From contig JBBRUX010000005.1 in assembly GCA_038247415.1 (NCBI GenBank), forward strand, positions 1 to 64,000: DNA of 64,000 bases, in the 5' to 3' direction. Position 1 is the stretch's first letter. Every line of letters starts with the position of its first letter. The position numbers were made by a program, and so were the translations under genes. The DNA is from Chitinivibrionales bacterium. GTDB taxonomy: Bacteria; Fibrobacterota; Chitinivibrionia; Chitinivibrionales; WJKA01. This document shows positions 46,859 to 63,616 of the stretch, one piece after another. The notes beneath the pieces were generated by a model, which was not told where the DNA came from, did not search any database, and saw only the letters and a list, made by a program, of their open reading frames with translations.

Positions 46859-47890
46859 GTCGAGTAGACACGGGTATTTCAACCCAAGCCTCTCACGGAA
46901 CCGTGCTTGAAAGTCTCCCTTCACACGGCTCTTTTTGACAGACGCAACCTAATAATTAAAACCATACTCCCAATATGGAAACATCTTCGGTTCACTCTCA
47001 ATCACCCGTTTGAGCCAGCCGTAGGCTTTTCCGTAAGTATTCGTTTTGTACTTCTTCCGAGCCCATTTGACAAGATAGGTGTTTAGTCGCCAGAAAACAT
47101 TCCGCAATACTGACGGACTGTATTTCCCATAGTAGTGCAACCAGCTCCTGATCTTGGGTGATAATTCCTTCGATACATCCTTGAGGTCAATTGGCACCCA
47201 ATTCCATATCGAAAGTCTTCTCAATTAATCAAGTATCCGTTTCTGGTTCTTTCTACTTATTGCAGGGAAATATGACCAAAACAACTCGCCACCTTGCTTT
47301 TTGTAAAGCCTCGGCTTGAAGGTATACCCCAGAAAATCAAACTGCCTTGCTACCTCTTTAGGTTCTTTTTGTGACCGTATCGAACAATGACAATACACCA
47401 TCTTTGTCTTCTCTCCATTCAGCTCCAAACCGTACCCTTGCAAGTGCGTCCGTAACCGATCAAGAATAAACTCTGATTGCTCCCAACTTCGTGTATGTAT
47501 CACTATGCCATCTGCATAGCGCTCAAACACTATTCGGGGCTGTGTACTTTGAATCCACAAGTCAAATGCTTCGTGAAGGAACAGATTTGCCAACAGCGGA
47601 ATTAAAACTCCACCTTGCGGGGTACCCTTGTCCGTTTGCGCTGAGAGTCCATCAATTCCAACTCTCTTCCCGCCTCGCTTGACAAGAAACCATGCTTCCC
47701 ATACTTGTCGTTTTGTTATACTTTGCGTCTTTGCCGCTGGTTTCGTCTCTATGCCGTGTACCAATGTGACCAAAACTCAGGTTACTGTCACACTTATCCC
47801 CAAACAGATTAAGAAGTCTGGGTTTCTGATACTGTGAAATTGATTTCGACACCTCGTAAACGGTTTAATTTATTGGTTCTTCAGACATTT
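46859..47890 (-). mobile_element. Degraded group II intron (bacterial class D/RmInt1-like)
   Basis: Domain V GAGCCGTGTGAAGGGAGACTTTCAAGCACGGTTC, domain VI ending CTACTCGAC at 46859, domain I remnants near 47760-47890; no 5' GUGYG end found. Confidence 0.85.
46949..47750 (-). pseudogene. ltrA: Group II intron reverse transcriptase/maturase pseudogene
   Basis: ITKRQVWEAW..VK..GIDG joined directly to KGTPQGGV..PLLANLFLH; FERYADG (YADD mutated); FDFLGYTF; in-frame TAA at 47225; domain X LSPKIRSWLHYYG. Confidence 0.88.
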
Positions 47891-51779: not shown

Positions 51780-52454
51780 TCAGATTTCCCCAATCATAAG
51801 CCCCTTCATCAATTGTAAATATTCTTCTCTCTTGCCATCAAAGTCGACCGGCTTTTGAAAGAACTCAAAAAACCTGCTATGGCGCAATGTCCGATAGAGA
51901 AGATTATTATCGTGCTCGGGATTACCCGTGATGAGAATGAAACGGATATTAGGACGGATTTTATGAACTTCATCGCAGAGCTCATTTCCTCGCATGCCAG
52001 GCATAACTTCATCGGTTATTACAAGTCGCACTTCTGGAGTAACTTTAATGAATTCTAAAGCTTCGAGAGGATCTAAGAATGTTTTTAAATTAAGATCTTT
52101 TGCAAACTTTCGCCTAAAAATAAAGAGATTTTGTTCCTCGTCATCAACATACAGCGCTAGGGGGTTTTCTGTGGGAGAAGGCCCTATTTTTTGTCGTATG
52201 CGGTCAAAAACGAGACCTATTGTTGCATCGTTAAATATTTGAGGCACACAATAGGGCTCTAAATCCAAGCGGCGTCCATCAAAGCGGACTTCAAGCTCAC
52301 GTGCAAATTCAGAAAACGACAAGATGTCAAAGCCATATGCCGTTAGCTTACTATCCTTGTGCAACTCGGAATCGAGCGATTTCAGGTCTTCGTAATCCCC
52401 ACAGATTGTGTCAACCGCAGATTTAATAACTTCGTAGAGGTCAGTGTCTCTCAT
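51780..52454 (-). CDS. Carrier-protein-like domain fused to a receiver (REC) domain
   Basis: N-terminal DSKLTAYGFDILSFSEFARELEVRF resembles an ACP but has Ile at the Ppant-Ser position; REC LYVDDE, ITDEVMP, LITG, QKP; ATGA overlap with the upstream gene. Confidence 0.75.
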   Translation of the reverse strand: MRDTDLYEVIKSAVDTICGDYEDLKSLDSELHKDSKLTAYGFDILSFSEFARELEVRFDGRRLDLEPYCVPQIFNDATIGLVFDRIRQKIGPSPTENPLALYVDDEEQNLFIFRRKFAKDLNLKTFLDPLEALEFIKVTPEVRLVITDEVMPGMRGNELCDEVHKIRPNIRFILITGNPEHDNNLLYRTLRHSRFFEFFQKPVDFDGKREEYLQLMKGLMIGEI

Positions 52455-53641
52455 AGTGAACGCAAGCCTTTCGGAAATTGCGATGTAATATTGAGCATTT
52501 TGAGGGAATCGATAATCTGCTCTGCCATATATTCAATTTCTTCTTCTGTTATACCAAAATATATTGAAAACCGAGCCAAGCTCGTATTTTCGGGAACTGC
52601 AGGAGGTAAAAAAGCAGAAAAAAGTATTTTTCTTTTTTTAAGCTCGCTATATAATTGACACACCGATTCCACTCCTTTAAACATCAATGATACTATCTGA
52701 CATTTACTCGGACCGGTATCGACGCCTTTTTCATTGAGAAGCTTACGAAGAAGTGCTGCTCTGGCATGCATGGTTATTGCACGCTCTGGTTCGCGCATGA
52801 GAATTTCTAATGCCTTGCAATTTCCGGCAGACGTGGCAGGGGTTGGAGCAGAACTAAAAATAACCGATCGAAGCCGATAGGTTAAATAATGGGCGGTTTG
52901 GATATCTGCAATAATAAAGCCCCCATGACCGCCCAATCCCTTTGCAATACTTACCGTTCGCAAGGGAATGCGTGACGCAAGCCCTTGTTCAACAGCTAAT
53001 CCCCCACCTTTTTCTCCGCATAATCCAAATGAGTGCGCTTCGTCAACAACTAACAAACAGCCAGTTTCTTCGCATATATCCACATATTCATGCAAATTTG
53101 CAACGCTGCCGTTAGTACTATAATACGAATCGACGGCTACAATACCAGGACCAAATGTCTTGACAAATTGACGAAGAGATGCTATGTCATTATGTCGAAG
53201 GGGAATTATCCGACTTCCGGCAAAACGCGCGCCATCCCACAACGATGCATGCGCATAGATATCGAGGTACACGGGAATATCCGGGCTTGCAATTGCTTCT
53301 ATAAGCCCAACATTTGCAGTCCAGCCACAGGTAGTAAGCACAATACTTTCTGGGCCTTCTGCCTGAGCAGATTCAGCAATTTTACGCTGAAAATCGCCAT
53401 GAAAACCACTAAAACCACCATATACGACCGAGGCCATTGCACCAGAACCAGTGAGTTCGGTTGCTTTGTTACGTGCAAGCGTTACTTCTGGATGCGAAGA
53501 AAGTCTCAGGTAGTCATTATGATGACAAGCTATGAATCCGTCGCAATCTTCTGGTTGATCAAAAGGAAATGGATTGAGTGCAGCAAGGCGTCCCATTGTG
53601 GGGATCTTATGTTTTTCAAACCAAACGGGTAGCATCGCCAT
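52451..53641 (-). CDS. cqsA: CqsA/LqsA-like PLP-dependent autoinducer synthase (AONS family)
   Basis: NDYL, GWTANVGLI, VYLDIYAHASLWDGARFA, GPGIVAVDSYYSTNG, VDEAHSFG, SIAK (PLP Lys), IFSS; the GW-ANVGL, AH-SLW-GAR and GPG motifs match CqsA/LqsA better than BioF. Confidence 0.75.
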   Translation of the reverse strand: MAMLPVWFEKHKIPTMGRLAALNPFPFDQPEDCDGFIACHHNDYLRLSSHPEVTLARNKATELTGSGAMASVVYGGFSGFHGDFQRKIAESAQAEGPESIVLTTCGWTANVGLIEAIASPDIPVYLDIYAHASLWDGARFAGSRIIPLRHNDIASLRQFVKTFGPGIVAVDSYYSTNGSVANLHEYVDICEETGCLLVVDEAHSFGLCGEKGGGLAVEQGLASRIPLRTVSIAKGLGGHGGFIIADIQTAHYLTYRLRSVIFSSAPTPATSAGNCKALEILMREPERAITMHARAALLRKLLNEKGVDTGPSKCQIVSLMFKGVESVCQLYSELKKRKILFSAFLPPAVPENTSLARFSIYFGITEEEIEYMAEQIIDSLKMLNITSQFPKGLRSL

Positions 53642-53665: not shown

Positions 53666-54826
53666 TTATACTACTTCTTGAGAAGCAATTTCATAGGCTT
53701 CTACCATGCTGGTACACCCTTGACATCCAATACATCCAGCACTATTTCCAACACCAAAGGATAACCCCCGATGGTGCATTCGTCGAGCAGCCTCCAGATA
53801 CAGCGACACGAGATCATCGAGTGAATGTTTTAGGTAGCTTGGAACCATATTTACAAGATGATTGCTATGAGGACGTACCAAAAGCAGCGTTGTTAGTACC
53901 CCAATAGATGCAAATTCGTCGATGCTTTGTAGAACTTTTTCGTACTTTTCTCCAAAGCCCAGAATACACGTGGTGTTAACAGAATTTTTACCATACGCCG
54001 CAACCGCAGCTTCCCAATTTCTTATATAGTCATCGCGGGAACAGCGCGATTTTCCTGGACAGATTTCTTTGCGAATATCTTCATCGAGGATTTCGAGAAA
54101 AATCCCCAGCGAATCTGCATACTTGGCAGTTTCGGCAATGAGTGACAAATCTTTTACCGGTTCGTGCTGTATATGAACCGAAATGTTCACACGTTCCTTA
54201 ATTTTCTTTACTAAGTCAATAAGTTCACGTACCACGACATCATTATCGGCAAATGTACCAGAAGTAATAGTAAGTGATCGCACTCCCTGTTGCGATGCCA
54301 AAGCTACTGCTTCAACGAATTTATCGATATCTTGTTTGGCTGCCCATTCGTTTATTCCTTTGCCAACCGGCTCAAGTTCACAATAGCGACATTCAAGACC
54401 ATCGGCAAAATGTTTGCATTCGTGGGCATACACCGACACGGCAGTAGCGTAACAATGCGTGCTAATACCTATTTCCATCATTGGTGTACCATCTTTAAGC
54501 GTTGCCCGTAAAAACGAAGGAATCGTTCTGCTTTTAAGCACAGCACCATTTGTTGCCGTTATAATTTTTTTAAGAGAATCATATTCCGATTGGATTGCAT
54601 ATGCCCCAAGCCAATGATCGAGGCCATATATTGGCAAACTTATCATACTCGAAAATTCATTATCCACGGCAGATCGCATATGGAAAGTTTTGCCTTGTGG
54701 ACCCGCACCAGTTCCTTTGGAAATAAAACTGCTGAGGGGAACACCATTTACGGTGGGTGGCGCAATACCCCGAGATTGGAGCTCGAGACGGCGGCGAAAC
54801 TGTGTCATTTGTGGAGAGTTTTGCAT
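53666..54826 (-). CDS. Radical SAM protein, MSMEG_0568/biotin synthase-like
   Basis: LELQSRG, GAGP, non-canonical CKHFADGLECRYC (CX8CX2C), ITSGT, ICPGKS, C-terminal AGCIGCQGC. Confidence 0.78.
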   Translation of the reverse strand: MQNSPQMTQFRRRLELQSRGIAPPTVNGVPLSSFISKGTGAGPQGKTFHMRSAVDNEFSSMISLPIYGLDHWLGAYAIQSEYDSLKKIITATNGAVLKSRTIPSFLRATLKDGTPMMEIGISTHCYATAVSVYAHECKHFADGLECRYCELEPVGKGINEWAAKQDIDKFVEAVALASQQGVRSLTITSGTFADNDVVVRELIDLVKKIKERVNISVHIQHEPVKDLSLIAETAKYADSLGIFLEILDEDIRKEICPGKSRCSRDDYIRNWEAAVAAYGKNSVNTTCILGFGEKYEKVLQSIDEFASIGVLTTLLLVRPHSNHLVNMVPSYLKHSLDDLVSLYLEAARRMHHRGLSFGVGNSAGCIGCQGCTSMVEAYEIASQEVV

Positions 54827-54842
54827 TTTAAAATTCTTTATA

Positions 54843-56501
54843 TCATTTAAAAAGCGTAAGTGAATTGTTAATAAGTCTTTCTTTGATAACTTTACGACGT
54901 TTTTTTCCACTCGATGTCTTCTCGATACTCCCTTTTCCGCAAAAGTAAACATGCGTTAACAAAAGTGCAAAAGATCTGAATATTAAATCCTGAATTTCTT
55001 TACGACGTGCCACTGCATCCGCCGATTCGAGCGGTTTTGTTTCGATAAGCGCATGAAGCTCTGCAACACCCGTTTGAGCATTCTCTAGAGAAAGCACAAC
55101 AGTGCATCCACTGCGAACATTTTCCAAACTTTCGATACACTGCTCGATATCGTCTGGAACAATGTTGCGCCCGCCAATAATAATAAGATCGTCTTTACGG
55201 GAGTGGAAAAAAAGTTCTCCATCATAGGTAAATCCGATATCGTTAGTGCACAGCCAGCCATTTTTAAGTGCCTTTTGAGTCGCCTCCGGATTTTTTAAAT
55301 AACCGGATGTTAAACAAGGGCCTTTTACAAAAATCTCCCCTAAGGCTAAATCTGGCAAAACTTCACCCGCAGTGCTTCGAACTTCAAGCAAAGTACCCTT
55401 AAATGGTTCTCCTATAGAAACAATTTCTAGAGATTCCTTGTCGGATTCATCCGAGAGCGACAGCTTTTCAGATTCGTCTACCCTAACGCGTAGAACCGTT
55501 GCCCCGTCGCTTCGTTTGGTTGAAGTTGCGCCAAGCGCATTTTCGGCCATGCCATAGCCCACGTGAATATGGCGCGATTGCAATTTGTGTTTTGACAACA
55601 AATCTATTGCACGCCGTAAAACAATACCCGTTACTTTTTCTGCACCAAAATACAAATCGAGCCGACTCAAATCGAGAGTGTCTGCCGTGGAATGTCCTAA
55701 AAGCTTAATAGTATGGGCCATTGCCGCGTTGGTTGTAAAATTAAGTCCTGTTTTATGCTCAGCCAACAGCTTAAACCACCTAAGGGGGTTCATCATATAC
55801 CAACGAGGCGAAACAAGAATATTGTCAACACCCTTATATAAAGGAAGCAGAATCCCAATAAAAAGGCCCATGTCATGATTAAAGGGAAGCCAGGATGCAC
55901 AGTGTTTAAGCTCTATCCCCGATGCCAGCGTGTATTCGAACCCAAGCACATCTACTTGGTTTAAAACCATTTGATGAGTCACAATAACACCTTTAGGAAT
56001 TCCCGTGCTTCCCGAAGAATATTGAATAACTGCATACTCACTAGGCGATACGGCAACACGTTCCAGAAAAGGTTTTCCTGTATGTTCTTGCAAATCCTTG
56101 AGCGATATGGCCTGTTTACCGGTGAGCGTACACCATGCTGCGGCCATGGCTTTATCGTCGGCTGTTTCACAAATAATAGTTGCAAATGCGCAACTATGTT
56201 CCACTCTGCCAAGATACTGTTCATAATCTTCGGATAACCCCATTACGGGTCTTAGAGGCACAGCTACTGCACCTAAACGCCAAACAGCTAAAATAATCGT
56301 AACATATTCATGACGATTAGTTAGCAATATACCCACGGTGGATGATTTCCCAACGCCTATTTCTGCAAGGGCGGTAGCATACAAACCAGAAGATTCCCAA
56401 AGATTTGAAAGTTTAAATTCACTTTTCTCTTCTGGAAATTTCCAAACAGGATCATATTTCTGTATGTTTTTTTCTACACTAGCAAGCAATGTATCTTCCA
56501 T
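54843..56501 (-). CDS. Fatty acyl-AMP ligase (FAAL-like)
   Basis: IQYSSGSTGIPKGV, SWLPFNHDMGL, GYGMAEN, RKDDLIIIGGRNIVPDDIE, IEKTSSGK. Confidence 0.85.
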   Translation of the reverse strand: MEDTLLASVEKNIQKYDPVWKFPEEKSEFKLSNLWESSGLYATALAEIGVGKSSTVGILLTNRHEYVTIILAVWRLGAVAVPLRPVMGLSEDYEQYLGRVEHSCAFATIICETADDKAMAAAWCTLTGKQAISLKDLQEHTGKPFLERVAVSPSEYAVIQYSSGSTGIPKGVIVTHQMVLNQVDVLGFEYTLASGIELKHCASWLPFNHDMGLFIGILLPLYKGVDNILVSPRWYMMNPLRWFKLLAEHKTGLNFTTNAAMAHTIKLLGHSTADTLDLSRLDLYFGAEKVTGIVLRRAIDLLSKHKLQSRHIHVGYGMAENALGATSTKRSDGATVLRVRVDESEKLSLSDESDKESLEIVSIGEPFKGTLLEVRSTAGEVLPDLALGEIFVKGPCLTSGYLKNPEATQKALKNGWLCTNDIGFTYDGELFFHSRKDDLIIIGGRNIVPDDIEQCIESLENVRSGCTVVLSLENAQTGVAELHALIETKPLESADAVARRKEIQDLIFRSFALLLTHVYFCGKGSIEKTSSGKKRRKVIKERLINNSLTLFK

Positions 56502-56520
56502 GTAATTCCTTGGTAAATAT

Positions 56521-56769
56521 CTATGTATGAGCTGCGATAAATGTAGCCAGATCATTTAGTGTCCGTAGTTCCTTAATTACTGTAGCATTAGGAATCGCAA
56601 GCTTGAACTTTTCTTCTACGAGTGCTTGAAGCTGCATAAGCGTCATAGAATCAATCATACAATCTTCAATAAGATCTTTTCCTACAACATCCTTAGCTGG
56701 CTGGTCAAAGAGGTGGTGTTCATCACATAAATTAACAAGTGAGGTGAGTATCTGATCTTTATTTGCCAT
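56521..56769 (-). CDS. Acyl carrier protein
   Basis: 82 aa, DLIEDCMIDSMTLMQLQALVEEKF with the Ppant Ser, RTLNDLATFI; AAGGAG RBS. Confidence 0.88.
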   Translation of the reverse strand: MANKDQILTSLVNLCDEHHLFDQPAKDVVGKDLIEDCMIDSMTLMQLQALVEEKFKLAIPNATVIKELRTLNDLATFIAAHT

Positions 56770-56849: not shown

Positions 56850-56878
56850 ATTATACGGGTTTTTGTTTTTTGAGTCAA
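56850..56878 (-). promoter_or_regulatory. Near-consensus sigma70 promoter of the ACP-FAAL-rSAM-cqsA-REC operon
   Basis: Minus strand TTGACT-17 bp-TATAAT. Confidence 0.8.
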
Positions 56879-57000: not shown

Positions 57001-58674
57001 TCAATTATCTTCTGGTTCGACCCGGCGAGCACTTGCATACCGCGCAGTGGCTTCTACCGAGGATGTTTCTGAAATCTGTCGCAAGCGGGCTAGTGCTGCA
57101 GGATGTTCGATATTGTACCAGTCGCGTGGCATTAGATCGCTGCTAAAATCATGACAACCTTCAACCATATCAAGGCCGCGTGGAACAACGTCCGGATTAT
57201 TGAGCACTTGCCGACATCGATGCGCATACAGATACACAATAGCATCCATAAGCTTTCCGGGCTTGTGTTTATGCGAAGGCATTTTTTCGAGAAGCTGCTC
57301 AAACAAGCGTGATGCGTTTGCCATGGTTCCCTCATTGAAATACGCATAAATTCCTTGACGTATAGAATCACGGGTTTCGTCTTTGTATGCTACAACTTCA
57401 CGTGCCTGATGTCCGTAAATTTCAAATACCTCAAATTTTTTATGGTATCCCTTAACGCGCAAAATATCAACCATACGAGAATGCTGATCATCCTGAAGAT
57501 CATCCATGACTTCCTGACTCACCACTATTTCTAATCCATACAGTTTTGCTACCGATTCTAGCCGGGAACACACATTGACTGCAGTACCAATCCAAGTACG
57601 ATCATATTTTTTTTCGGAGCCAATATTCGCTTCCAACACAGAACCTTTGGCAATGGCAATTACATTGGCCATTTTAGGCATGCCAGCTATCACAAGTTGC
57701 TTGTTGTAAATTTGCAAACTTTGTCGCATGAGCAGCGCAGCCTCTACCGCTGTTTTACCATCGGGGAAAATTGCCATCACGGCATCACCCATCAGTTTAT
57801 CAACCTCGCCTCCAGCCGAAAACACTGGGTCAATCATCATTTCAAAATATTTATTAAGAAATTGAGCCTGCACATCTGGGTCGGTCATCGATTCGGTAAG
57901 TGGCGTAAAATTTCTCATATCGCAAATGAGAATAGCTTTATCGCTCATGCGAGGCTTAAATTGACGAGGATCTCGGCCTTGATTAACTTCATTAACAACC
58001 GAGGGTCTTACAAACGTTGAAATAATAGCATTGCGAGCAACGAGTTCAGAATTTTTATGTTCAAGCACCAGTTGTCTACGCAGGGCATCTTCGGCTCGTA
58101 GGCGCTCTTTTGTGGTATCCAGCGAAATAACATAAAAGATGTCAAGCGCAAGCTTTATCATGGCAATAACCATAGATGAAAGCCATGCAATTGCGAATGC
58201 TCCTACCATATTGGAGAGCGTGGATACAGCAGATCCTGTTTGTATAAGGTAACTCGCTGCCGCGCAGATAAGGCCAAGAGGAAAAGCAACTACCGAAAAA
58301 TAAACTTTAGAAGAAGTAAATCCATACACAAAACCTGCCCACATCAGCGAGGCATACCAATACTGGTTCATATTGTTATGCATCATGAGGTTTGCAAATA
58401 CAAACGGGAACATAAAAACAAGCGCTGCTTCCCAATACACTTTATGCCATGTTTGAAATGGAGAGTTTTTGGGAAAAAATACGAAAGGGATAGTGATCGC
58501 AACAATAATCAACCGGAGCAACAAATCTTCGTGATAGCCCAGATAAAATTTACAAATCAGATAAAAGAGCATGTTTGAGAGCGGAGCAATTACACCCATA
58601 AAGAAGGCAAACTTCTCGGTAGTATAAAATTTGGGAGAGCGGGTGATCCCAATGGCAGTTTTAAGATAATCCAT
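57001..58674 (-). CDS. Class III adenylate cyclase with an N-terminal CqsS/LqsS-like multi-TM sensor domain
   Basis: Sensor FY.I..F...YHEDLLLR...FPFVFANLMMHNN...WYASLM; coiled coil; cyclase ICDMRNFT, VDKLMGDAVMAIF, NIGS...DRTWIGTAVNVCSRLE. Confidence 0.82.
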   Translation of the reverse strand: MDYLKTAIGITRSPKFYTTEKFAFFMGVIAPLSNMLFYLICKFYLGYHEDLLLRLIIVAITIPFVFFPKNSPFQTWHKVYWEAALVFMFPFVFANLMMHNNMNQYWYASLMWAGFVYGFTSSKVYFSVVAFPLGLICAAASYLIQTGSAVSTLSNMVGAFAIAWLSSMVIAMIKLALDIFYVISLDTTKERLRAEDALRRQLVLEHKNSELVARNAIISTFVRPSVVNEVNQGRDPRQFKPRMSDKAILICDMRNFTPLTESMTDPDVQAQFLNKYFEMMIDPVFSAGGEVDKLMGDAVMAIFPDGKTAVEAALLMRQSLQIYNKQLVIAGMPKMANVIAIAKGSVLEANIGSEKKYDRTWIGTAVNVCSRLESVAKLYGLEIVVSQEVMDDLQDDQHSRMVDILRVKGYHKKFEVFEIYGHQAREVVAYKDETRDSIRQGIYAYFNEGTMANASRLFEQLLEKMPSHKHKPGKLMDAIVYLYAHRCRQVLNNPDVVPRGLDMVEGCHDFSSDLMPRDWYNIEHPAALARLRQISETSSVEATARYASARRVEPEDN

Positions 58675-58833: not shown

Positions 58834-60027
58834 ATGATAAACTTTGATACTATGAACTCAGAAACCATCCTTGATTTATTTGATGTTGAACCAATAAACG
58901 AAAAACGCATATCTGAACGTGCATTTCTTACCGTTGCGGTCACCCTTGAAATTGGGGATCGGCTTGTACGCGGCGTCGAATGCAAAAACGTCAGTCTTGG
59001 CGGTATGTTCCTAATTTCGAAGGTTCATATTCCCCTTGGAAGCGTTGGAACAGTTACTCTTACAAAACGCTGCGATAAAAAAAGAGTGAGCTTTTCTGCC
59101 GATTTTGAAGTCGTACGTCACGAAGGAGAAACAAAAGAAGATATTGGGCTTGGCCTTAAATTTATTCGACTTACCGATGAAGATAGACTTGCAGTCGAAT
59201 TCATTGTTGATTTCCGCACGGGTGTAACCCTTCGGGAACGATTAGATTTGTCGGAAGAGAAAATTTCGGACATCCGCTTTAAAATTGCGCAAACCCAAGA
59301 AGAACTAGCTGGAGCATTTTCACTTGTTCACGATTCCTATGTAACGCGAGGTTACATGGATCCCGACCCAAGCGGTATGCGCTTGAGCATCCACCACGCC
59401 ATGCCTCTAACAACAGTTGTTATTGGCGTTCAAAACAATCGAGTTATTGCTGCTTCGGCACTTTTTTTAGACTCCCCCATTGGCTTGCCCATGGACAATC
59501 TTTACAAGAGAGAGCTTTCTGAATTTCGCCAAAACAGGCGACTCATAGCAGAAATTGGGGCATTTGCCGTTCACCAAGATTTGCGAGCATTTACAACAAC
59601 ACTCGTGCTGCATCTTCAAAAGCTGATGTTTTTATACACCTTTAGATACCTGAATCTCGATGATATTGTTTTGGTAATAAACCCGCGACACAAGCTTTAT
59701 TATCAACATGTCTTATTAGCCAACCAAATTGGGCCCGAGCGCGTTTACCAAAAGGTAAAAGGAAATCCGGCCATTGCCATGTCGATGGATGTTCGCAAAG
59801 CACAAGATCGTTTTAAAGAAAGCTATTCTACCCTACCCGACAATAAAAACTTGCATCGCTTTTTTTACGAACATACAAGCGAATGCCTACAAATGCCTGA
59901 ACTTCGTCAGCCTATTGTCACGTGGAATCGCGCATTGCTGCATTATTTTTTCGAAGAACGGTCGAAACTTTTCGAGACAACAAGCGCCGATACCATAAAA
60001 TTTATTCTTAGCCATTACGAGAATTAA
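58834..60027 (+). CDS. PilZ domain fused to a FeeM-like N-acyl amino acid synthase (GNAT) domain
   Basis: RISER (RxxxR) and NVSLGG PilZ motifs; FKIAQTQEELAGAFSLVHDSYVTRGY, DSPIGLPMD, AEIGAFAV, INPRHKLYY, GNPAI. Confidence 0.78.
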   Translation: MINFDTMNSETILDLFDVEPINEKRISERAFLTVAVTLEIGDRLVRGVECKNVSLGGMFLISKVHIPLGSVGTVTLTKRCDKKRVSFSADFEVVRHEGETKEDIGLGLKFIRLTDEDRLAVEFIVDFRTGVTLRERLDLSEEKISDIRFKIAQTQEELAGAFSLVHDSYVTRGYMDPDPSGMRLSIHHAMPLTTVVIGVQNNRVIAASALFLDSPIGLPMDNLYKRELSEFRQNRRLIAEIGAFAVHQDLRAFTTTLVLHLQKLMFLYTFRYLNLDDIVLVINPRHKLYYQHVLLANQIGPERVYQKVKGNPAIAMSMDVRKAQDRFKESYSTLPDNKNLHRFFYEHTSECLQMPELRQPIVTWNRALLHYFFEERSKLFETTSADTIKFILSHYEN

Positions 60028-60028
60028 T

Positions 60029-60811
60029 ATGTCAACTGCAACAAGTGCTGGTTACGTTTCTGCCGACTATCTCAAAGCACTTGCGCAGGCAGCAGAACCC
60101 ATAAAAAAGCGCATACGAGATTTGCTTGCGCTAGGCTCCAACTCAAAAATTCTTGATGCGGGCTGTGGTCCTGGCACCGATACTATTCCTTTAGCACGTT
60201 TACTGAATAATTCGGGCATAATTTGTGGCATGGATGCCGATAGATCTATGATTCAAGCCGCGCAAACCCGCATACAAGTAGAATGGTTCCAAAATCTTTA
60301 TCATTATGTCGCTAACGCCACTGCAATTCCTTGCAAAACCAACAGTTTTGATGCAGCATTTTGTGATCGGGTATTACAACACATTAAAGATGCTCATAAC
60401 GCAGTCGCCGAAATGTGTCGTATAGTAAAGCCTGGTGGGAAAATTGTACTTGTCGATTCAGATCATTCCTCACTGAGCATTTCGACAAATAATTCATCAA
60501 CAGAATGTGCATTGCGAACCTGGAGAACTCAAAGATTACACAATGGCCTCGCTGCTCGTAATCTTGGCACCTATGCAATTAAAGCAGGGCTATTACTAGA
60601 AAGTATAGAGTGCATCCCTTTTCTATCTCGCAGCTATGCAGGATTTAGGCTCGGAACAGCTGCAGATCTTGTTGAGCAAGAAGCCGTTACACGAGGGATT
60701 ATATCGTCCGATCAATTAGATTCATATAAATCTGACCTGGAAGATCTCGATCGCGCCAATGCATTTTATTCTGTAATTCCTATGATAATACTCTCAGCAA
60801 CTAAACCGTAA
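60029..60811 (+). CDS. Class I SAM-dependent methyltransferase
   Basis: ILDAGCGPG, FDAAFCDRVLQH, RIVKPGGKIVLVDSD. Confidence 0.88.
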   Translation: MSTATSAGYVSADYLKALAQAAEPIKKRIRDLLALGSNSKILDAGCGPGTDTIPLARLLNNSGIICGMDADRSMIQAAQTRIQVEWFQNLYHYVANATAIPCKTNSFDAAFCDRVLQHIKDAHNAVAEMCRIVKPGGKIVLVDSDHSSLSISTNNSSTECALRTWRTQRLHNGLAARNLGTYAIKAGLLLESIECIPFLSRSYAGFRLGTAADLVEQEAVTRGIISSDQLDSYKSDLEDLDRANAFYSVIPMIILSATKP

Positions 60812-61332: not shown

Positions 61333-63616
61333 ATGAATGATGCAAACCTTCGTGGTACCACCGTGGCTCCTGAATTGGAATGGCATAGCAATCCGATGTT
61401 GCGCAATGTGTCAAAACGCATTGTTCAGCCCATGATCAGATATCTTGACGCTGAATTTGGTACTACCATTACGAATCAAATTATTGCCGAAAGTGATCAT
61501 GATCGTGATTTTTTTGAAGATGTTTATGGATTTATGCCCATTGAAACCACCGAGAAAATGTTTGCGAGTGCAATCCGCATAACTGATAACCCCGACTTCG
61601 CCTACAAAATGGGAAAAGAAATCTGGAAATACACTCCAACAATTCAAGCCCTTCTTGGAATAACCGTAGCTACCCCTTCTTTGCTTTTTGAGAATATGAA
61701 CAACATCGAAGGAAAAGCCGTACGTACAACAATAGTTGACACTCAAAAATTTGGGGCTTCCAAATATAGGCTTAGCATTAGCTTTAGGGGCGGCTTTGTG
61801 GAACCAGCCAATGCATGCCGTAATAGGCATGGAACCTACGAATCGGCCACACAAATGTTCGGTTTACCACCATCCAAAGTTGAGCACCCCCAGTGCCGAT
61901 TTAGAGGCGACGATCACTGCGTGTACGATATTACCGTCCCTGAACAATCATTTTTTATTTATCAAAAAATTTCGTTTATAATTGGCTTTTTGGGTTTGGT
62001 AGGCTTTGGTCTCTTTGCACTTTTGCACTCCCCTATTCTTGCAATAGTTGGAAGTCTTTGCATCCCGTTAGCGCTCGGTTCGTACCTCTTTTTCTTGAGA
62101 TCGCGCCTTACCGCAAATTTACGGTGGATTGCAAATGCAAAGCATTCAATTGAGGAGAATAGCAAAGATGTTTTAACTGAAATGAATCGCACGAAACATT
62201 TGCATGAGCTTACAAGCAACCTCAATAGCTGCTTATCTCCCCTATCTGTCGCGAAAGCAGCAACACATTCCCTTACCCACGATTTCAATTACGGCTCTGG
62301 GCAAGTTTGGCTTCTTAAAGACGACGACTCCCTTATGTGTACAGCAACATCTGGGTTAGCACAAAATCTTGAAGCCTCGGTGAAAAGTATTTCGTATTCC
62401 ATATCCGAGGGAATGAATCGCCCCGAAAGCTTTATTGCACATGTTATAGGCCGTAAAGAAATTCTCCTCATTAATGATGTTAAGACAAGTACACAAACCT
62501 TCATTGCACCCACTCAAGATTTGCTCCAATTGATCAATCCATCATCCTTTATTATTGTGCCGACTGCTTTGCTTTATTATTGTGCCGATTCTCGAAAAAA
62601 ACAAAGCAGTCGGCATGATCATTGGCGCAAACCATGAGGCTGGTGTTCAAGTAAAATATCTGGATCGTGTTATTTTCGAAGCACTTACGCTTGTCGTTTC
62701 AACAACATTGGCAAAGGCCAAAGTCTTTGAAAGCATGGAACGAAAACTCGAAAAAAGAAAGCAACTCTTGCGCGATCGTCAAGATGAATTGCTTATAGCC
62801 CGAAAGATATCAATTCAAAACGAAAAGGTCTCTGCGCTGGGGGAAATGGCCGCAGGCGTTGCGCACGAGATTAACAATCCGCTTAATTTCCTTGTTAATA
62901 TAGTAAGCGAGCTCGAACGAGACACAAAAGGGTTGCATGAAATAGCTGCACTCGGTAACACGTTTGCACCACAAAACATTCGCCATGAAATCGATAAAAT
63001 CTTTGTCGATTACAACCTTGCCGAGCGCATCACTGAATCGGACTATGTTTACACGCTCATCCGACAATCTCTTGCCCGTGCACAGAAAACGGTGAGTAGT
63101 CTGCGCATTTTTGCGCGCCAAGCCGGTAACGATGGAGTAAAACCCGAACCATTGTGCGAATTGATTCGTAGTGCATTCGAGATTATTCCACAAAAATATC
63201 GAGCAGATGTAACCCTTACGTGCGAGCTTGGTTCAGAGTGCGCGGTGCATGTTAATCGTATAGAATTCTCTCAGATAATTATTAATATCCTTACCAATTC
63301 CATAGAAGCCATGAATGGCAAAGGATCAATAAAAATTGACTTAGAAGAAACAAATCGATCTCATCTGGTTTCAATTTCAGATACTGGTTGCGGGGTTCCT
63401 CCCGAAAATAGAGCACTTATTTTTAAAGCCTTTTTTACCACACAAAATAAAGAACAGCATACCGGCTTAGGGCTTACGGTTGCGCTGGAACTTTCTCATA
63501 AAAATGGCGGTACTATCGAACTCGCACAAAAGCAACCCACTCTGGGAGCATGCTTTATAATTACTATACCTAAACCGTTCAAACCTTCGGCAGAGCTGGA
63601 TGCCCATGCCGCTTAA
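61333..63616 (+). pseudogene. V4R-like/2TM/GAF sensor histidine kinase, frameshifted by a 25-bp insertion
   Basis: VEHPQCRFRGDDHCVYDI (V4R-like), 2 TM, GAF, GVAHEINNPL H-box, N/G1/F/G2 boxes; 17-bp direct repeat CTTTATTATTGTGCCGA at 62547 and 62572; removing 25 bp restores NPSSFIIVPILEKNKAVG. Confidence 0.8.

Follow-up and report, generated by a model that had tools for sequence, protein, structure and literature searches.

The stretch of DNA analysed here (the window) comprises 64,000 nucleotides of contig JBBRUX010000005.1 from a Chitinivibrionales bacterium. On its minus strand, at 57001-58674, lies a gene for a 557-aa protein that joins a six-transmembrane (6TM) N-terminal domain, similar to that of the quorum sensors CqsS and LqsS, to a class III adenylate cyclase. 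An earlier note on this DNA, made from the sequence alone, had described the protein as a domain swap that would convert an alpha-hydroxyketone (AHK) type signal directly into cAMP. The gene and its parts are as follows, with the basis of each assignment in brackets (HMM, hidden Markov model; ORF, open reading frame; TM, transmembrane helix).

57001..58674, minus strand: whole gene for the 557-aa protein, made up of a 6TM sensor, a long helix, a class III adenylate cyclase and a helical C-terminal domain (ORF, translation, Pfam, AlphaFold2 model)
58135..58674, minus strand: six-TM sensor domain of the CqsS/LqsS superfamily, residues 1-180 (relatives, reciprocal HMM, hhalign, motifs)
57946..58134, minus strand: cytoplasmic extension of TM6 and short 'handle' helix into the cyclase, residues 181-243 (DSSP on the AlphaFold2 model; the OaPAC match starts at residue 212)
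57418..57945, minus strand: class III cyclase catalytic domain, residues 244-419 (Pfam, OaPAC alignment, 18 6TM-cyclases, Foldseek)
57001..57402, minus strand: conserved C-terminal helical domain, residues 425-557 (phmmer matches to C-termini of relatives)

The reading frame begins with ATG at 58674 and stops at 57001-57003. An upstream TTG would lengthen it to 58788, adding 38 residues; in alignments, however, the N-termini of relatives line up with the ATG and not with the TTG. The sole Pfam domain of the protein is PF00211 (Guanylate_cyc), covering residues 244-417 with 33.7 bits against a cut-off of 21.9. Neither HisKA nor HATPase_c was detected by Pfam, in agreement with the earlier note, which had seen no H-box or HATPase domain, and a scan against NCBIfam gave no match. 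Strings quoted in that note were all verified in the translation: FYLICKFYLGYHEDLLLRL at residues 36-54, FPFVFANLMMHNN at 89-101, WYASLM at 106-111, DKLMGD at 292-297 and NVCSR at 367-371.

An AlphaFold2 model of the protein, built on an alignment of 18 6TM-cyclases, has a mean pLDDT of 84.1. It places six helices between residue 17 and about residue 180, bearing out the claim of a membrane domain of some 180 aa. The sixth helix runs unbroken from 151 to 221 by DSSP, about 70 residues, and is followed by a short helix (224-231), a cyclase fold (242-419), within which pLDDT averaged over blocks of 10 residues stays between 79 and 96, then a C-terminal domain of helices (425-492) and a disordered tail. 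TM6 is thus predicted to continue as one long helix into a complete cyclase domain. The C-terminal domain (residues 425-557) has no Pfam match above threshold, and by phmmer it matches the C-termini of relatives in loci L012, L013, L127-129 and L133-141. Two close relatives, P0004 (345 aa) and P0010 (239 aa), combine the 6TM domain, truncated in P0010, with this C-terminal domain and lack the cyclase domain. The C-terminal helical domain may thus serve some function by itself.

Kinship of the membrane domain with quorum sensors was assessed against reference sensors defined by gene context. NF005526, the NCBI equivalog model for AHK autoinducer synthases (cut-off 428 bits), was exceeded in 11 of 400 sampled genomes from the class of a Pseudomonas genome, with scores of 482-593 bits. 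The references are the N-termini of ten kinases encoded beside these synthases, and so are chosen by context and the equivalog cut-off, not by the name CqsS or LqsS. An exhaustive phmmer search with residues 1-195 of the cyclase protein returned 75 cluster representatives at E<=1e-3, 32 of them at E<=1e-10. An HMM built from 70 of the 75 matched an ORF no more than 1.6 kb from the equivalog AHK synthase in 10 of the 11 loci (E 5e-17 to 2.5e-25 among 726 ORFs); in the eleventh the contig stops 343 bp beyond the synthase. All ten matched ORFs are histidine kinases, eight without a receiver domain and two with one. These correspond to the LqsS-like and CqsS-like architectures, respectively, described in PMC3376566.

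The reciprocal search gave the same answer. An HMM of only the ten reference N-termini found the cyclase ORF with E 3.1e-10 (39.2 bits, HMM positions 22-174), the sole significant match in its own genome (11,577 ORFs), the next best having E 0.16. Family against family, hhalign returned a probability of 99.4% (E 4.1e-21, 173 columns), and the single cyclase sequence against the reference family still scored 97.4% (E 1.2e-11). Judged by these profile comparisons, the 6TM N-terminus and the CqsS/LqsS-type sensor domain are truly homologous, as the earlier note had proposed from motifs, and the likeness is beyond chance.

Those motifs pair in order: PQpYENl.LR of the references with GYHEDLLLRL of the cyclase, LPFFF.FM with FPFVFANL, and N..vW.mS with NNMNQYWYAS. 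Accordingly N100, W106 and S109 of the cyclase sensor align with the N..vW.mS of the ten reference kinases, and the W-x-x-S pair singled out in the earlier note has its counterpart in their Trp and Ser. In V. cholerae CqsS, W104 and S107 on TM4 are head-group determinants, conserved binding motifs lie in TM1-3 and the second half of the domain varies (PMC3376566). By position and helix, the W106 and S109 columns probably equal W104 and S107. In alignments of relatives, R54, N100 and W106 never vary in A1 and A2, P90 is invariant also in A4, and S109 is nearly invariant in A1. R54, N100, W106 and S109, polar or aromatic residues in or near membrane helices, are conserved in relatives whose outputs are of five kinds.

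Neither Pfam nor NCBIfam has a model for the CqsS-type sensor domain. A profile of the 6TM family found no solved relative among PDB sequences (best E 1.2, a ribosomal protein). A word-index search with the N-terminal 200 aa, a method too insensitive for this domain, retrieved only the protein itself, and one with a 14-row alignment retrieved four proteins, none named CqsS. Cluster annotation of ten hits gave generic names only. The ESM Atlas gave 'hypothetical' clusters only, with MASE-type leads in minor shares of the cluster members.

The cyclase half is intact. Class III cyclases act as dimers, and their catalytic residues are two metal-binding Asp, a substrate Lys, and a transition-state Asn and Arg. 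The closest solved relatives by sequence are OaPAC (E 1.7e-24, residues 212-425) and bPAC, with CyaB and CyaC next. Foldseek with the AlphaFold2 model likewise ranks OaPAC and bPAC first (5.3e-14), with CyaC and CyaB at TMt of about 0.8. In the OaPAC alignment D252, K293, D297, N367 and R371 face the corresponding residues and T364 stands opposite an Asp; the first five are invariant across the 18 natural 6TM-cyclases. The catalytic set named in the earlier note (metal Asp pair, Lys, Thr, Asn and Arg) is therefore complete as D252, K293, D297, T364, N367 and R371. A scan of the whole genome found three class III cyclase domains, that of the 557-aa protein scoring 36.7 bits on PF00211, and ten cNMP-binding domains (cyclic nucleotide monophosphate). 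Thus, cAMP signalling is plausible in this organism.

Output domains vary widely among relatives of the membrane domain. By Pfam, the 75 representatives comprise 28 with kinase-type outputs (HisKA, HATPase_c or Hpt), 14 with a class III cyclase, eight with GGDEF, three with SpoIIE/PP2C, one with a Ser/Thr kinase, one with tetratricopeptide repeats (TPR) only and 20 with no domain, many of them fragments. The CqsS-type domain is a promiscuous input module, and lipid autoinducer-like sensing would then reach beyond two-component relays and Proteobacteria. A tree of 87 N-terminal domains sets the cyclase in a 75-row sister group of the references. Only this split, and no direction of events, is read from the tree, because it comes from a quick IQ-TREE search on about 190 columns with several long branches and a midpoint root. 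Within the sister group, well-supported branches alone force at least seven changes of the label 'cyclase', and P0072, which groups with the ten reference sensors, is itself a cyclase. Four further representatives (P0008, P0026, P0034 and P0053) carry the same 6TM module before a short linker (LL.NILP..IA..LK-like) and a different cyclase subtype, at 162-225 bits on PF00211. The module has thus been joined to cyclases more than once; the second subtype points to an independent fusion.

A gap of 231 bp separates the cyclase gene from a biosynthetic operon on the same strand, with these features.

56850..56878, minus strand: promoter-like site, TTGACT-17-TATAAT, 11/12 (consensus scan; inside the 231-bp gap; a lead only)
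56521..56769, minus strand: acyl carrier protein (ACP), 82 aa (PP-binding E 2.4e-7, 31.4 bits, cut-off 20.8)
54843..56555, minus strand: fatty acyl-AMP ligase-like enzyme (AMP-binding E 4.6e-50)
53666..54952, minus strand: radical S-adenosylmethionine (SAM) protein, MSMEG_0568-like below cut-off (Radical_SAM E 1.2e-10; TIGR04043 132.9 bits, cut-off 303.7)
52451..53641, minus strand: CqsA-like alpha-oxoamine synthase, sister clade of the AHK autoinducer synthases (NF005526, best solved relative, tree)
51780..52454, minus strand: response-regulator receiver protein with a helical N-domain of about 100 aa (Response_reg at residues 101-205; 4-bp overlap with the synthase gene)

Because the ACP gene heads the operon and the best promoter-like match precedes it, the cyclase gene is probably its own transcription unit; promoter-like sites overall are no commoner than in shuffled sequence, the one at 56850..56878 being the best match of the region. 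The best NCBIfam models for the acyl-AMP ligase-like enzyme are a long-chain-fatty-acid--CoA ligase (NF005850, 272 bits) and then a fatty acyl-AMP ligase (NF006624, 262.5 bits), both under their cut-offs. Base composition does not set the cluster apart (GC 0.41-0.43, against 0.39-0.445 elsewhere in the window).

The synthase gene lies in this next operon, about 3.4 kb downstream of the cyclase. Among solved structures its nearest relative is the V. cholerae CAI-1 synthase (E 1.2e-51, 179 bits), ahead of serine palmitoyltransferase (SPT, 154) and 8-amino-7-oxononanoate synthase (AONS, 146). In the synthase tree the clade of the window enzyme is sister to the equivalog AHK synthases with 99% support, the BioF-like rows being excluded. 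All tested relatives, 18 in number, score 284-311 bits on NF005526. A profile search of genomes with the synthase alignment classed 16 of 80 loci as CqsA-like and the remainder as BioF-like, and returned no Vibrio or Legionella record. By these comparisons the window synthase is closer to CqsA than to other alpha-oxoamine synthases.

Several observations on this enzyme and its partner receiver stand apart. Clade-mates of the synthase occur in loci L015, L016, L020 and L021, whose record names are Gammaproteobacteria, Lentimicrobiaceae, Pseudomonas and Lysobacteraceae. An acyl-AMP ligase gene is present in all four, a fatty-acid desaturase in L015, L021 and L020, DUF1254/DUF1214 and short-chain dehydrogenase/reductase (SDR) genes in L015, L016 and L020, a sulfotransferase in L015 and L016, and an aldehyde dehydrogenase in L015; by gene content this cluster looks like a pathway for a sulfated aminolipid. 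The bacterium's own genome (G000) holds a second CqsA-like gene on contig C17 (L010, 9407-10615; 301 bits on NF005526), accompanied by a receiver protein of its own (L010, 8746-9483). It adjoins flavodoxin/4Fe-4S and amine-oxidase-like genes and has no 6TM sensor within 10 kb. Members of the receiver family (window, L010, L012, L013, L014, L017, L128 and L133-L137) have a complete DD..D..T..K signature and the helical N-domain of about 100 aa, number up to three paralogues per locus, and always lie near the synthase or cyclase. Their N-domain has a carrier-like L..LG.D motif, but as an ACP it scores below threshold (PP-binding E 0.16) and lacks a conserved Ser after the Asp. An LqsR-like identity of the receiver protein was rejected, the match being a generic receiver-level one only (E 2e-5).

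On the cyclase gene's other side, three genes run in the opposite direction.

58834..60027, plus strand: protein with PilZ and FeeM (N-acyl amino acid synthase-like) domains (FeeM E 1.5e-39, PilZ E 8.2e-12; 159-bp spacer, divergent from the cyclase)
60029..60811, plus strand: class I SAM methyltransferase following PilZ-FeeM (Methyltransf_31/11/25; orthologues in L127-129)
61333..63616, plus strand: membrane histidine kinase, in two frames in the window (HATPase_c, and HisKA, in the 3' frame)

PilZ is a c-di-GMP-binding domain. Orthologues of the PilZ-FeeM protein are likewise divergent from the cyclase in L127-129, and a 132-aa ORF lies between the methyltransferase and kinase genes. The kinase frame is split by a 25-bp tandem duplication (TTTATTATTGTGCCGA... 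repeated) near 62547 (window 62520-62600), and tblastn with the L128 kinase, a single frame of 738 aa, changes frame across the gene. A contig of sequencing run X3 is without exactly these 25 letters at 62547 and a contig of X2 has them, so the break is polymorphic, or an assembly variant, among sibling samples. No Pfam match to GAF was found in the window kinase; we call it GAF-like from its homology to the L012 kinase, which has a GAF domain. Elsewhere in the window, a 182-aa ORF at 47225-47773 (minus strand) resembles, by eye, a fragment of a group II intron/retron-type reverse transcriptase (...GTPQGGVLIPLLANLFL...YADGIV...).

Relatives of the whole protein were compared in 17 loci: the window; L127-L129, from three genomes of its taxonomic order; the Fibrobacteria metagenome-assembled genomes L012 (two copies) and L013; and the metagenome contigs L133-L143, at 36-45% identity. 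An alpha-oxoamine synthase gene lies near the cyclase in nine, a receiver-protein homologue beside synthase or cyclase also in 9/17, PilZ-FeeM in five (0/11 of the metagenome loci) and a kinase homologue in four. Five of the synthases are CqsA-like (window, L128, L012, L013 and L142), three SPT/BioF-like (L133-135) and one PRK07505-like (L137). Of the order's 81 genomes, four carry the cyclase orthologue (G000, G434, G435 and G436). The CqsA-like gene occurs only in G000, G434 and G435, on a separate contig in G434, and PilZ-FeeM in the four cyclase-bearing genomes plus G460 and G461. The genomes are kin, and these counts of loci and genomes are therefore a description and not a statistical test.

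Collectively, these data favour, with a probability of roughly 55%, a membrane adenylate cyclase gated by a lipid signal, in which the 6TM anchor is the receptor and the ketone lipid of the adjacent operon the most likely ligand. The protein would act as a homodimer, as class III cyclases do. A small amphipathic lipid would bind within the 6TM bundle and shift the two paired long helices, turning cAMP synthesis up or down. The likeliest candidate is a lipid of amino-ketone or hydroxy-ketone type, produced by the operon's ACP, acyl-AMP ligase, radical SAM enzyme and CqsA-like synthase. cAMP would then act on the cNMP-binding proteins of the genome and might conceivably reach the neighbouring GAF-like kinase and the cluster's receiver proteins as well. 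Such a system would parallel cqsA/cqsS with a second messenger in place of the phosphorelay. That an AHK is the ligand of the cyclase, and that ligand alters its cAMP output, we infer from this arrangement. A CqsS-Rv1625c chimera is stimulated by CAI-1 and a CqsS-AC2 chimera inhibited (PMC4821796, PMC12414865), so the sign of the response cannot be predicted.

A number of results weigh against this reading. The cyclase sensor falls outside the clade of the reference sensors, a branch with 98% support in the Shimodaira-Hasegawa-like approximate likelihood ratio test (SH-aLRT) parting the ten references, P0072 and P0076 from the other 75 rows, and its TM4-6, in the half of the domain that varies, depart from the reference kinases, with a YG motif where those have LLV-DW. 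The synthase scores 294.7 bits on NF005526, below the equivalog cut-off of 428 (231 on the bioF model). Its clade-mates in Proteobacteria and other phyla lie in desaturase/aldehyde dehydrogenase/sulfotransferase/SDR clusters, a context that looks like lipid biosynthesis and not signalling, and none of the synthases in L015, L016, L020 and L021 has a 6TM module within 10 kb. L127, L129 and L136, with 7-10 kb on each side, contain no alpha-oxoamine synthase gene. Five of the eight loci without a synthase are contigs of 5.1 kb or less, so that 9/17 sets no firm bound, lower or upper. In G436, a 97%-complete assembly with the cyclase, no CqsA-like gene was found, and in 4/4 cyclase-bearing genomes of the order it is PilZ-FeeM and the methyltransferase that adjoin the cyclase. 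The proposal of the earlier note therefore stands in part. The domain swap holds insofar as the sensor is homologous, the cyclase intact and a kinase absent; it is not one on a canonical CqsS, since the sensor is part of a large sister group with many changes of output. A CqsA-like synthase operon does lie downstream, at 0.45 kb, the enzyme representing a sister clade of CqsA/LqsA. In the trees, sensor and synthase alike stand as sisters to their counterparts in the canonical pair, and this parallel counts in favour of a link between the two.

The neighbourhood just described suggests a different source for the ligand. With architecture and mechanism unchanged, the signal could be the product of PilZ-FeeM and the methyltransferase, an N-acyl amino acid or methyl ester, instead of an alpha-oxoamine-synthase product. 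These genes are the immediate divergent neighbours in the window, L127, L128 and L129, a weaker FeeM-domain protein holds the same position in L013, and G436 retains cyclase, FeeM and methyltransferase without the CqsA-like gene. We nonetheless consider this source unlikely: neither L012 nor any of the 11 metagenome loci that contain cyclase relatives yielded a FeeM homologue; G460 and G461 have PilZ-FeeM too, without a cyclase orthologue; and the precedent of the family is a sensor fold paired with alpha-oxoamine synthases in 10 of 11 loci. It is also conceivable that the 6TM domain senses the state of the cell's own membrane lipids, such as an aminolipid or sphingoid-like intermediate of the neighbouring synthase, with cAMP feeding back on lipid synthesis and no cell-to-cell signal involved. 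For the L133-L135 synthases the best-scoring model is that of serine palmitoyltransferase or of BioF (337-346 bits, against 186-214 on the AHK synthase model), the lipid-modifying clusters of the clade-mates point the same way, and an ACP with an acyl-AMP ligase is typical of lipid assembly. In loci of the Fibrobacterota type, however, the synthase accompanies receivers, kinases and the cyclase, not lipid-modifying enzymes; the closest solved relative of the window synthase is the CAI-1 synthase; and a patchy distribution (4/81 genomes of the order) is more in keeping with an accessory island for signalling than with a core function in membrane homeostasis. A purely homeostatic sensor thus appears distinctly unlikely.

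A last alternative, which we regard as highly improbable, grants the 6TM domain no ligand and treats it as a device for membrane anchoring and dimerization, the cyclase being constitutive or set via its C-terminal domain or other partners. It would accommodate a sister group of sensors in which no member has a known ligand, the absence of a synthase near the gene in L127, L129 and L136, and a conserved C-terminal domain that could be the real regulatory input. Mere anchoring does not sit well with the retention of R54, N100, W106 and S109 in or near the membrane helices of relatives with five outputs, with a fold common to proven ligand-binding sensors (by the homology found here; PMC3376566), or with the repeated proximity of the gene to lipid synthases. 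We therefore retain the lipid-gated cyclase as the preferred reading.

A more far-reaching version of it is possible, although doubtful. Genomes of the Fibrobacterota type might hold a complete 'para-cqs' circuit, running from CqsA-like synthase through lipid autoinducer, 6TM cyclase and cAMP to the GAF-like kinase and receivers. CqsS and LqsS would then be no more than the familiar part of a large superfamily of lipid receptors with six helices, wired repeatedly to cAMP, c-di-GMP, PP2C, Ser/Thr-kinase and His-kinase outputs. Were this true, the protein would provide the first proof from nature that a class III adenylate cyclase has a ligand receptor in its hexahelical anchor, with the candidate ligand encoded next door. 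The receptor role of six-helix cyclase anchors has been argued for more than ten years, mainly on CqsS- and LqsS-cyclase chimeras (PMC4821796, PMC9552081, PMC12414865). A natural protein of the chimera design, with relatives in at least 17 loci and genes for a plausible ligand adjacent, makes the question directly testable.

Comparison with known systems defines what is shared and what is new. With CqsS of Vibrio and LqsS of Legionella the protein shares a homologous six-TM sensor with aligned E/LR, LPFFF-like and N..W..S motifs, and a gene for a related alpha-oxoamine synthase nearby. It differs in its output, a class III cyclase in place of HisKA/HATPase with or without a receiver domain, in a sensor from the sister group with differing TM4-6, and in a synthase below the cut-off; the comparison was made via the context-defined reference kinases and not via named CqsS/LqsS sequences. 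Like Rv1625c/Cya of M. tuberculosis and the mammalian membrane adenylate cyclases, it consists of a 6TM anchor, a helical transducer and a class III catalytic domain. For the anchors of those enzymes we know of no ligand. Those anchors are not detectably related in sequence, the 6TM-family profile finding no match to Cya at E<=10 in the PDB, whose library for fold searches includes the full-length protein (7yzk_A). Foldseek aligns 433 columns with 7yzk_A, poorly outside the cyclase (TM-score 0.29/0.41, root-mean-square deviation 15 Å). Beltz et al. found CqsS anchors to cluster apart from cyclase anchors, with local matches only (PMC4821796). OaPAC and bPAC have a related handle helix and catalytic domain and the same catalytic residues except T364, which is Asp in these photoactivated enzymes, and carry a soluble BLUF flavin domain where the window protein has a 6TM membrane sensor.

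In an engineered CqsS-Rv1625c chimera the cyclase is ligand-regulated (Beltz et al. 2016, PMC4821796), as it is reported to be in LqsS-Rv1625c (Ziegler et al. 2017, as described in PMC9552081). A full-text literature search found no report of a natural CqsS/LqsS-type sensor-cyclase fusion; a possibly relevant 2018 review by Bassler, Schultz and Lupas lay outside that search. Among the representatives found here, P0008, P0026, P0034 and P0053 are the closest natural match to the CqsS-Rv1625c design. The 557-aa protein shares with both chimeras a quorum-sensor-type 6TM receptor joined to a class III adenylate cyclase. Unlike them it is natural, takes its sensor from a sister subfamily, places an OaPAC/bPAC-like cyclase behind a helix of about 70 residues and adds a C-terminal domain. 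It is best read as a natural counterpart of the engineered CqsS-cyclase chimeras.

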